Shown: one piece after another, positions 37,132-48,734 of the stretch | Numbering within the stretch: position 1 is the first letter of the stretch | Layout: each line of letters begins with the position of its first letter | Origin: Escherichia coli | GTDB lineage: Bacteria > Pseudomonadota > Gammaproteobacteria > Enterobacterales > Enterobacteriaceae | Direction: 5' to 3' (one strand) | Length of the DNA stretch: 64,000 bases | Assembly: GCF_050920415.1 (NCBI RefSeq) | Contig: NZ_CP169309.1 | The notes under the pieces: generated by a model | What the model was told of the DNA's origin: nothing | The model's input: only the letters and a program-made list of their open reading frames with translations | The model's database searches: none | Program-made: the position numbers and the translations under genes

Positions 37132-37225
37132 GGCTGCTCTCCGGCATTGAATGTGTGCAAGCGCACCCTGATGGTGCGAATTGCCGGCGGGTGTGGTGCG
37201 CCCGTCCGGCATCTACGGCTGCGGA

Positions 37226-38338
37226 TTATTTTCCGCTCTTCACTTTGGTCCACGCGCGGGTGCGCACACGGTCGATTTTCGGATCCTGCACTTTCAGAGT
37301 GAACAGCTTCGCACGGACATCCGCAGGCGGGTAAATACCGGGGTTATCACGCACTTCCGCGCTTACCAGCGGCGTAGCTTCTTTGTTCGCGTTGGCATAG
37401 AACACATGGTCAGAGATATGCGCTACGACATCCGGACGCAGCAGGTAATTCAGGAACTGATAAGCTTCGTCTTTATTTTTGGCATCCGCAGGCATGGCAA
37501 ATACATCAAAGAATGCCATCGCCCCTTCTTTCGGAATCGAGAACGAGACATTAACGCCATTCTTCGCTTCCTTCGCGCGGTTTGACGCCTGCCAGACATC
37601 GCCCGCCCAGCCAATAGCGACGCAGATATCGCCGTTTGCCAGGTCGTTAATGTATTGAGATGAATGGAAATAACGAATGTTCGGGCGCAGCTTTAACAGC
37701 AGATCGGTTGCCGGTCCGGTGTAATCATCTGCTTTAGTGCTGTTGGGATCTTTACCGAGATAATTCAGCACGGTAGCAAACACTTCTTCCGGTGCATCAA
37801 GGAAAGAGACGCCGCAGCTTTTCAGTTTTTCCAGATTTTCAGGTTTGAGGATCAAGTCCCAGCTATCGACGGGCGCGTTTTCGCCCAGCACCGCTTTAAC
37901 TTTATCGACGTTATAACCAATCCCGGTCGTCGCCCACATATAGGGCATAGCAAATTTATTGTCGGGATCGTGTTTGGCGACCAACTTCAGCAGTTCCGGG
38001 TCGAGATTCTTCCACTCCGGCAATTTGCTTTTATCCAGCGGCTGGAAAACTCCCGCAGTCAACTGGCGCTCCAGAAAGCTGGCAGATGGAACCACCAGGT
38101 CAAAGCCGGTGCTCCCTGCCATTAATTTGCCTTCCAGTACTTCGTTAGAGTCGAAAACATCGTAGACGACTTTAATACCGGTTTCTTTTTCAAAATTGGC
38201 CACCGTGTCCGGGGCGATATAATCAGACCAGTTATAAATGTGGAGTGTTTTTTGTTCAGCCGCGAGCGTGCCGACAGAGACGGCCATCAGAGCACCCGCA
38301 ACCAGACCCGATAGCCATTTTTTATTTAAGGCGGTCAT
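37226..38338 (-). CDS. potF: Putrescine-binding periplasmic protein PotF
   Basis: 370 aa from MTALNKKWLSGLVAGALMAVSVGTLAAEQKTLHIYNWSDYIAPD...; upstream extension trimmed. Confidence 0.96.
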   Translation of the reverse strand: MTALNKKWLSGLVAGALMAVSVGTLAAEQKTLHIYNWSDYIAPDTVANFEKETGIKVVYDVFDSNEVLEGKLMAGSTGFDLVVPSASFLERQLTAGVFQPLDKSKLPEWKNLDPELLKLVAKHDPDNKFAMPYMWATTGIGYNVDKVKAVLGENAPVDSWDLILKPENLEKLKSCGVSFLDAPEEVFATVLNYLGKDPNSTKADDYTGPATDLLLKLRPNIRYFHSSQYINDLANGDICVAIGWAGDVWQASNRAKEAKNGVNVSFSIPKEGAMAFFDVFAMPADAKNKDEAYQFLNYLLRPDVVAHISDHVFYANANKEATPLVSAEVRDNPGIYPPADVRAKLFTLKVQDPKIDRVRTRAWTKVKSGK

Positions 38339-38396
38339 ATCTCTTTCCTTCTGAAAGTTCGTTAACAAACGAACAAAAGTTGTCACACTGAAAGAT

Positions 38397-38413
38397 ATGC
38401 AATATTCGTGCAT
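38397..38413 (-). promoter_or_regulatory. Weak sigma-54-like -24/-12 element upstream of potF
   Basis: Minus-strand sequence aTGCACgaataTTGCAt resembles TGGCAC-N5-TTGCA (one G missing in the -24 box), about 60 bp upstream of the potF ATG. Confidence 0.3.
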
Positions 38414-38688
38414 ATTTTTTATCGGCTCGGTGTAAGAAAAGAGAACTCTCTCCCGGCCAGCACTGCTCGCTATATAAAAGCATCGCAAGAATAACTTTAG
38501 CCAGGGTTTGAGACTATAGCTCGGATTAAAAAACGGTATTTAACAAATTTTTATGCGTATTTGCTCTATGTGATAAAGCCAAATCGGCACAAGAGAAGTG
38601 AAATAATCTTTAAGAAAAGGTTAAAAACAGCAGATAATTTTGCAGCACGCAGTCACTGCGGCAGCGACTGCGTGCTCGAAAGGAGTTA

Positions 38689-47216: not shown

Positions 47217-48449
47217 TTACCCTTCGTGCGAATTTCCCATCTGTTTATCTTTTAAAAAGATAACCATCAGCAGCAGCCACAAAATCCCGTTGGCAAGGTT
47301 GAAGAGATTAAACAGGCCGTTGCCCCCATTCAGCCAGGCATGTTTGCTGATTTCAATACCGACGGTAAAAATAAGCATTTGCAACATTCCCATCGCCGCA
47401 GAAACCGTACCTTTACTCATATCGCTGGCAAACAGGGTCAATCGCACCAATCCCGCATTCGCCAGGCCAATACCGAAAGCATAAATACTTAACCCGGCGG
47501 TCATCCACAAATACGCGTGCGATGAGATAACCGTTGCCGCAGCAGCGACCAATAGGCCAATCATAATCGGCCAGCCGCCCATAATAATCAATGAACGTAC
47601 GGTGCGGCGCGAGGTCAGACGCGCTAGCAGCAAGTTACCCGCAATTAATGCCCCGAAAATAGGCACTTGCAGCAAGCCATATTCATAGCTACTCAACTGC
47701 TCGCCGGTAATGATGATAATCGGCGACTGGGCGATCCACGCCAGCAACGGCAGGCTAACAAATCCCAGCGCCAGTGCCCCTGCCACAAAGCGACCGTTCT
47801 TCAGCACCAGCTTATAGTCACGACCGAGTTCTTTCAGCGACAGTTTCTCGCCTATACGCGTGGCGGTTTCAGGCATGGCTCGTTGCAGACCGAAAAAGGA
47901 GATCGCTGCCAATGAGGCAAACAAGACGAACATCCCTTCCCAGGGCAGCACATGGATCCACGCCGCGCCCACCAGCGGACCAAGTAGCGGAGCAATCAGC
48001 GCCACGTTCGCCATCAGCGCGGTGATCTTGATACAAACCGCCTCTTCGAAGGACTCCTGAATTGCGGCGTAACCCACAGCGCCAATGAAACAGAGGCTTA
48101 TGCCCTGCAAGAAGCGCAACAGCGTGAATTGTTCAATGTTTTGCGCCAGTAATATCGCCAGACAAGTGATGATAAACCACACTACTCCCGCCAGCATCAC
48201 CGGACGGCGACCAATACGATCCGACAGTGGTCCCAGCAGCCACTGTAAAAACATCCCGCCCGCCAGATACGCGGTCATCGAAGTAGGAACCCAATCAATG
48301 CCCGCCTGATATTGTTCCACCACGGCCAACATACCGGGTTGAATCATATCGTTGCCGATATAGGTTGAAAATTCGTAAAGCACCAGACAGAGAGGGAAAA
48401 GTAACGCCTGACGTCCAAGCCTGGCACCGGAAGCTAATCTATTTTGCAT
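47217..48449 (-). CDS. mdfA: Multidrug efflux MFS transporter MdfA (Cmr)
   Basis: 410 aa from [40 protein letters not shown]... Confidence 0.95.
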
Positions 48450-48734
48450 GCAATTTCTTCGCCAATAATAATCGCGCAAAGTTTAATAAAAGCGCAGCTA
48501 ACGAGAAAGCGAATTTTGTAGCTGAAACTTCGGTTAAGCACATTCTTACATTATTGCGAGTATAGCTACGCTTTCTTTAAGTTTTATTTAACCTATGCTC
48601 GTTACAATCACCCACCGTAAACAGGGCCGCTTGAGGGAAATAAGACGATGCCGCTTTACCCAGTTTAACCTGCACTTTATTCTCAACGACTTGCCTGTAT
48701 TGGCTCCCTTTTAATCACTTTGCGTCGGGAAGTT

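Follow-up and report, generated by a model that had tools for sequence, protein, structure and literature searches.

Known sigma-54 promoters related to the potF element

The potFGHI genes form a putrescine ABC-transporter operon for uptake, and a nitrogen-starvation sigma-54 promoter has already been catalogued for it. The promoter itself is known from EcoCyc and from genome-wide sigma-54 maps, and potFGHI has an established place in the nitrogen-scavenging regulon of NtrC and sigma-54. The assignment of potF to NtrC and sigma-54 reportedly goes back to work by Zimmer in 2000 and by Reitzer and Schneider in 2001. The closest described system is the potF promoter of Escherichia coli K-12, which was detected by sigma-54 ChIP-seq as site OS08 (peak 892944, motif centre 892939, FAT 2, PSSM 6.83); its motif, TATGCACGTTTATTGCA, is centred 5 bp off the peak centre (Bonocora 2015). 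OS08 was also flagged as an EcoCyc-predicted promoter, with the start predicted 49 nt before potF (Bonocora 2015 Table 1), and both its ChIP occupancy and its K-12 PSSM score are among the lowest reported (Bonocora 2015). ChIP-chip signals of sigma-70, sigma-38 and sigma-54 extend across the potF region (Cho 2014). In gSELEX, no peak of the RpoN holoenzyme in the genome is higher than the one assigned to the ybjN-potF spacer; the peak table gives its coordinate as 892632, roughly 300 bp away from the motif (Shimada 2021).

Expression data from K-12 point in the same direction. Under nitrogen depletion potG was induced 6.0-fold and potI 3.2-fold, and both rpoN and ntrC were needed (Shimada 2021); the measured transcripts are the potG and potI mRNAs, not potF. 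The control of potF also involves other factors. For example, loss of rpoS lowered potF expression about 2.7-fold in stationary-phase cells, and Lrp, ArgR and ArcA were reported to occupy the promoter region. Nothing positive on potF promoter control was found in Brown 2014, in Kim 2023 (on Nac), or in a 2025 paper on putrescine homeostasis.

The promoters glnAp2, glnHp2, glnK, astC and nac of the Ntr regulon share with potF the -24/-12 architecture, the exact box spacing, and a start some 12-13 nt past the GC. They are likewise used under nitrogen limitation, their operons depend on rpoN and ntrC, and they serve nitrogen scavenging. However, potF has TG instead of GG at -24, and its FAT value is 2 compared with 6-24 for these promoters. 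The 350-bp spacer upstream of potF contains no NtrC site, the sole strong one being located 1.2 kb downstream, after the first gene; and the published in vivo NtrC ChIP-seq data list no peak at potF.

The first G of the GG doublet is present in 48 of the 50 intergenic ChIP-bound sites, and the only exceptions are potF and ygfT (Bonocora 2015 Table 1). The ygfT site (OS32) and the K-12 potF site have a common 20-mer, ATATGC[A/C]CGTTTATTGCAT, with 19/20 identical positions (L083:107-123 and L001:1885-1904 in our set of loci). Both carry the same TATGC variant at -24 and both are weakly occupied, so that TATGC looks like a tolerated weak -24 variant. The two sites differ in other respects; the ygfT site is at an unlinked locus with unrelated flanks, it belongs to urate utilisation with presumably a different activator, and it is poorly conserved. 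The shared 20-mer could be a convergence on a weak-promoter variant, or a coincidence.

The potF element and its rare spacer allele

The window (the whole stretch of 64,000 nucleotides analysed) is from an E. coli chromosome, and the test stretch was 100% identical to strain MFDS1022581 and 98.2% identical to K-12. The gene order on the minus strand is rimK, ybjN, potF, potG and potH, and positions 38339..38688 are the entire ybjN-potF spacer. This spacer has 98.2% identity to K-12, and its -24 and -12 boxes are unchanged. The coordinates of the features are collected in Table 1.

Table 1. Features of the potF promoter region and of the potF-potG spacer (positions in the window)
Feature	Position	Strand	Basis or remark
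Sigma-54 -24/-12 element TATGCACGAATATTGCA, 17-mer	38414..38398	-	read from sequence, matrix scan, K-12 orthologue, conservation
-24 box ATGCAC	38413..38408	-	
Spacer GAATA	38403..38407	-	
-12 box TTGCA	38402..38398	-	
Sigma-54 transcription start G	38386	-	homology to K-12 TSS 892959, no spacer indels
48-nt 5' UTR of the sigma-54 transcript	38339..38386	-	read from sequence
Leader hairpin GTTCGTTTGTTAACGAAC	38374..38357	-	+13..+30 of the sigma-54 transcript
potF Shine-Dalgarno AAGGA	38350..38346	-	
Alternative upstream start G	38481	-	K-12 TSS 892864, 18 reads, exponential phase only (Cho 2014 Table S4)
Hairpin with T-run (CCGGGAGAGAGTTCTCTTTTCTT...)	38423..38459	-	per-sequence folding
Strong NtrC-consensus site CGCACCATCAGGGTGCG	37162..37178		potF-potG spacer; 11/14 to TGCACCA-N3-TGGTGCA
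Weaker NtrC-like site TGCACACATTCAATGCC	37143..37159		potF-potG spacer; 8/14, left half perfect

The sequence-only reading had placed a -24/-12-like sequence about 60 bp upstream of the potF ATG. The sequence aTGCACgaataTTGCAt was indeed found on the minus (potF) strand, and the 3' end of its TTGCA at 38398 is 60 nt before the ATG at 38338..38336. The same reading described the -24 box as imperfect and short of one G. The imperfection is real, but no base is missing: the element differs from TGGCAC-N5-TTGCA by two substitutions (ATGCAC for TGGCAC), in which the upstream G of the GG doublet is replaced by T and the preceding T by A, and the box spacing is canonical (ATGCAC-GAATA-TTGCA). The -12 GC is present in its TTGCW context. 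The canonical -24 GG doublet, which is typical but not obligatory, is replaced by TG.

The K-12 promoter is at the same position, with its motif centre 68 nt from the ATG, and has identical ATGCAC and TTGCA boxes; whereas its spacer is GTTTA and that of the window is GAATA. The two alleles differ by two adjacent bases (TT to AA), and with the sigma-54 matrix GAATA gains 2.4 bits over GTTTA. The GAATA spacer was found in 18 of 5,426 complete E. coli genomes, and GTTTA in at least 5,341. There are no indels between K-12 and the window in the ybjN-potF spacer, and from -40 to the ATG the flanks are the same save for one base. In the strain of the window, the NtrC site downstream of potF has one mismatch more than in K-12 (TGGTGC to GGGTGC). 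The sigma-54 occupancy, start-site and expression data were all obtained with the K-12 GTTTA allele, not with GAATA.

Motif scoring and chance expectation

A search of the window for TGGCAC-N5-TTGCA with one mismatch gave zero matches, because the two -24 substitutions hide the element from it; with two mismatches 21 matches were recovered, including the potF element, compared with 26.7 +/- 5.5 in shuffled sequences. The consensus match is thus at chance level and by itself meaningless as a pattern. A sigma-54 weight matrix was built from 49 published ChIP-seq sites (Bonocora) with potF left out. With this matrix the window element scored 12.1 bits and ranked 9 of 127,968 positions, and the K-12 allele scored 9.7 bits. 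The bound sites used for training have a median of 16.1 bits and a range of 6.25-20.9, and the window element falls within this range. No other match above 7.5 bits was found on either strand of the ybjN-potF spacer and the 3' end of ybjN. A sigma-70 and terminator scan of this spacer gave one weak promoter-like match on the plus strand and no terminator.

Other matches were noted elsewhere in the window. The sequence TTGGCGAAGAAATTGCA at 48449..48465 (-) scored 13.9 bits and is identical to the Bonocora site OS07 (ybjG/mdfA region, FAT 10); it is part of the training set, and this score is therefore not independent. Four matches of 14-15 bits with canonical GG/GC, at 27387..27403 (-), 59367..59383 (-), 59619..59635 (+) and 23418..23434 (+), all outscore the potF element.

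Conservation across the Enterobacteriaceae

Eighty Enterobacterales potF loci were fetched and 75 were analysed, 51 with the element and 24 without. In the 51 loci, which come from more than 20 genera, the best sigma-54 match upstream of potF is ATGCA[C/T]-N5-TTGCAT. The genera include Escherichia, Citrobacter, Enterobacter, Klebsiella, Raoultella, Kosakonia, Leclercia, Phytobacter, Pluralibacter, Mangrovibacter, Buttiauxella, Cedecea and others. The element centre is mostly 67-69 nt from the potF ATG, and the box spacing is kept in all 51. Across the 49 unique sequences of these loci neither ATGCA nor TGCAT varies, the spacer occurs in at least 12 versions, and the flanks are 40-90% conserved. 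This conservation matches that in Table S5 of Bonocora 2015. Invariant boxes around a varying spacer are what a functional two-box site should show. The conservation together with the experimental data excludes pure chance.

Among the 75 loci, the element is absent outside the Enterobacteriaceae. Within the family it has decayed in two nested lineages and by different routes. About 70 nt upstream of potF, Salmonella (L011 and L013) has a decayed element, TATGCACATTTCAGGCAT, in which TTGCA has become AGGCA; and Yokenella (L012) has ATGCA-TTTA-TTGCAT with a spacer 2 bp shorter. The NtrC site after potF is also missing in both. A deletion of the Salmonella -12 box was considered and ruled out by the alignment, in which TT is replaced by AG. 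Bonocora et al. designed primers for ChIP-qPCR at potF of Salmonella.

The invariance extends to the 'wrong' A and T of the -24 box and to the T that follows TTGCA, and the conserved positions thus form a perfect palindrome, ATGCA-N7-TGCAT. It might be an operator for a dimeric transcription factor, with the -24/-12 resemblance being incidental or secondary. The ten invariant positions make a perfect 5+5 inverted repeat, sigma-54 requires none of the three 'wrong' or flanking bases that are fixed across genera, and the exact palindrome occurs once in the window with 0.18 expected; but one such palindrome also appeared in 18% of the shuffled sequences. The half-site spacing equals that of the NsrR consensus core, which we take to be AAGATGCATTT-N-AAATGCATCTT. 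The literature search ties neither NsrR nor any other factor to the site, and the motifs of the reported potF factors Lrp, ArgR and ArcA do not fit it. Moreover, the asymmetric conserved positions (Y at 7, G/A at 8, T at 13) track the preferences of sigma-54 and not the palindrome. The ChIP-seq peak is specific for sigma-54, the transcription start is at the sigma-54 distance, and the sigma-54 site of ygfT has the same TATGC variant. An operator as the main function of the site is regarded as very improbable.

Transcription starts of potF

Three potF starts were mapped in K-12 (Cho 2014). One of them, TSS 892959, was found in one study with 7 reads and only in the glutamine (N-limited) condition (Cho 2014 Tables S4/S6); it was unseen in the exponential, stationary and heat-shock samples, and its listed upstream sequence ends with ...ATGCACGTTTATTGCATATCTTTCAGTG (Cho 2014). 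The start predicted from the motif (892958) and the mapped start are one base apart. The corresponding G of the window is 13 nt after C38399 of the -12 GC, within the 11-13 nt usual for sigma-54 starts. The upstream start at 38481 belongs to the sigma-70/sigma-S part of potF control and not to the sigma-54 promoter.

A different explanation of these data is that the sigma-54 site is mainly non-productive or repressive. The closed complex, 95 bp downstream of the 38481 start, would act as a roadblock or competitor for sigma-70/sigma-S transcription, and an overlapping promoter of the sigma-70 type would give rise to the 38386 start. Many sigma-54 sites bind without being promoters (Bonocora, Shimada), the RpoN holoenzyme was proposed as a repressor at some loci (Shimada), and the element is downstream of TSS 892864. 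Sigma-70 and sigma-38 also bind the region, potF is rpoS-dependent in stationary phase, and a -10-like TATCTT with the key A2 and T6 is found at 38397..38392. However, the would-be -10 has no -35 (AAAAAA is at that position), and the sequence from TTGCA to the start, which includes it, is only 40-66% conserved; whereas the sigma-54 boxes are invariant. The restriction of the 38386-equivalent start to nitrogen limitation also speaks against this explanation, as does the rpoN-dependent activation, not repression, of potG and potI. In addition, a site with such low occupancy (FAT 2) would be a poor roadblock. On balance a mainly non-productive or repressive role is very unlikely, and the promoter reading is retained.

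The claims of the sequence-only reading can be judged from these data. It had called a sigma-54 promoter plausible, and the K-12 orthologue with identical boxes is bound by sigma-54; it had named potFGHI as reportedly nitrogen-regulated through NtrC, which agrees with the rpoN and ntrC requirement of potG and potI. Its caution over the imperfect match was justified, since the site is among the weakest bound and one of the two in 50 without the first G. The two refuting conditions that it set were both decided in favour of the element by published K-12 data, namely a mapped start that is compatible with the motif and seen only under nitrogen limitation, and the expression under nitrogen depletion in rpoN and ntrC mutants, here as potG and potI. 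The confirmation shows that a real promoter can be picked out by reading the sequence alone, despite a consensus match at chance level. The published K-12 data, obtained with identical boxes, show sigma-54 occupancy (ChIP-seq, ChIP-chip and gSELEX), a start specific for nitrogen limitation, and rpoN/ntrC-dependent induction of potG and potI. What is new here is modest: the family-wide invariance of the GG-less -24 box, the rare GAATA allele, and the co-occurrence of the promoter with an NtrC site.

The NtrC site downstream of potF

No NtrC site of at least 10/14 was found in the 350-bp ybjN-potF spacer, although such sites are usually placed roughly 80-150 bp upstream of the sigma-54 promoter. 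Nothing in the 64-kb window matches the NtrC consensus better than the strong site in the potF-potG spacer, which ties for first place and is located past potF, 1,216 bp downstream of the sigma-54 start. Its K-12 counterpart, CGCACCATTATGGTGCG, matches at 12/14 and is a perfect inverted repeat; in other genera the match reaches up to 14/14. The adjacent weaker site is centred 19 bp from the strong one and abuts the potG Shine-Dalgarno and GTG (37131), and several genera have a second GCACC half-site after the strong site. Between the NtrC sites and the potG GTG there are only about 30 nt.

The position of the strong site coincides with a 95% NtrC gSELEX peak at K-12 894130, which was ascribed to a 'potG promoter' (Shimada 2021). 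Gel shifts gave evidence of NtrC binding in vitro, and a potG probe was also shifted with the RpoN holoenzyme (Shimada 2021). NtrC ChIP-seq of N-starved cells listed no peak at the pot locus (Brown 2014).

Of the 51 loci with the element, 46 also have an NtrC site of at least 10/14 directly behind potF, compared with 0 of the 24 that lack the element, among them Salmonella and Yokenella; about 4 and about 2, respectively, would be expected by chance. Fisher's test of the co-occurrence gave 5e-15, a value that ignores shared ancestry. Between the potF ATG and nucleotide 700 of potG, E. coli has no sigma-54 motif above 5.5 bits, and with the short distance to the potG GTG a separate sigma-54 promoter does not fit. 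A second sigma-54 promoter for potG was considered and rejected for E. coli, where the best match is 5.5 bits; the matches of other genera at fixed codon positions reflect coding conservation. Since there is no upstream NtrC site and no local sigma-54 motif, and since the site and the element co-occur across species, the sites at 37143..37178 are probably a remote downstream enhancer for the potF sigma-54 promoter.

A stem-loop, GCCGGACGGG...CCCGCCGGC, was noted at 37190..37217 (-), 8 nt past the potF stop and just upstream of the NtrC sites. It is without a T-run, and it might set the potF:potGHI ratio by stabilising the mRNA or directing its processing.

Proposed mechanism of potF activation

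It is likely, in our view by a wide measure, that the element is the sigma-54 (RpoN) promoter of potFGHI; its activator is most likely phosphorylated NtrC, which would act from the downstream site by looping. RNA polymerase with sigma-54 would bind the -24 (aTGCAC) and -12 (TTGCA) boxes as a closed complex, and the T in place of the upstream G of the GG doublet would make this binding weak. When nitrogen is limiting, the closed complex would be remodelled by an enhancer-binding ATPase (most likely phosphorylated NtrC), and transcription from G38386 would produce an mRNA with the 48-nt leader. NtrC would act through DNA looping from 1.2 kb downstream, bound between potF and potG at the strong site and at the weaker one beside it. 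The absence of an upstream NtrC site, and of any other sigma-54 motif that the downstream site could serve, leads us to infer this pairing. The sigma-54 promoter would be one of several inputs, together with the exponential-phase upstream start, a partial rpoS dependence, and Lrp, ArgR and ArcA.

The activator might also be another one than NtrC at the downstream site. NtrC could act from solution, or from upstream sites too weak to have been detected; alternatively, a different enhancer-binding protein could be used. The NtrC site between potF and potG would then have a separate role, such as a potG promoter or a roadblock. The treatment of potG as a separate NtrC/RpoN promoter, with the gel shifts and a 45% RpoN+NtrC gSELEX peak (Shimada), is in favour of this alternative, and so is the missing NtrC ChIP peak at the locus (Brown 2014). 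In some Citrobacter, a sigma-54-like motif of 13.8 bits overlaps the NtrC site. The searchable literature describes no natural NtrC enhancer 1.2 kb downstream of its promoter. On the other hand, E. coli itself has no nearby -24/-12 motif above 5.5 bits and only about 30 nt from the site to the potG start, and the NtrC site and the potF element were gained and lost together. NtrC sites moved by more than 1 kb, including downstream, reportedly still activate glnAp2 (Reitzer and Magasanik, 1986). This alternative deserves serious weight, although its likelihood is well below even.

If NtrC does act from the downstream site, the locus would be a possible natural case of a remote downstream enhancer, and the downstream-enhancer reading offers a testable account of a discrepancy in the literature, where RpoN is placed upstream of potF and NtrC between potF and potG. 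A further, tentative proposal, to which we give somewhat less than an even chance, is that a natural far-downstream enhancer inside the transcription unit loops to a deliberately weak, non-canonical promoter, the two having been kept jointly in most Enterobacteriaceae and lost jointly in Salmonella and Yokenella, with the conserved 'wrong' -24 bases reflecting selection for low basal occupancy or for a second binding protein. The invariance of a sub-consensus -24 box over the whole family bears on the tuning of sigma-54 promoter strength and on the treatment of GG-less sites by weight matrices.

Structures and other sequences in the ybjN-potF spacer and leader

The stem of the leader hairpin has compensatory changes (UA/CG/GC) in 3 of the 4 predicted pairs over 22 species. 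The hairpin is located 7 nt before the Shine-Dalgarno and has a conserved GTTAAC in the loop; an Rfam search gave no match for it.

The hairpin at 38423..38459 has a purine-rich and a pyrimidine-rich arm. It lies downstream of the 38481 start, and about 20 nt separate the end of its T-run from the -24 box. Its structure is conserved but not its sequence; 48 unique sequences had a median dG of -12.3 kcal/mol and a median z of -1.7, with many below -3. Klebsiella, Citrobacter and Pluralibacter have strong versions of it, but that of E. coli is weak (z -1.2). An RNAalifold consensus over this hairpin gave no structure, owing to indels. The hairpin is possibly a terminator or an attenuator, or it may insulate the sigma-54 promoter from the upstream start.

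In the AT-rich upstream half of the spacer there are ARG-box-like sequences (14/18) at 38542..38559 and 38597..38614 (-), which fits the reported occupancy of the potF promoter region by ArgR, Lrp and ArcA. At the equivalent of 38542..38559, K-12 has a closer ARG-box match, TATGCATAAAAATTTGTT, by our own count. An ARG-box fit to the potF element itself was also tried, and fails on spacing.

A long GC-rich inverted repeat (GCACGCAGTC...GACTGCGTGC) is found at 38645..38675 and begins 14 nt past the ybjN stop. The nearest T-run is about 15 nt beyond the stem, and four differences from K-12 put a mismatch and a wobble pair into the K-12 stem. This repeat is probably the 3' stem-loop of ybjN.
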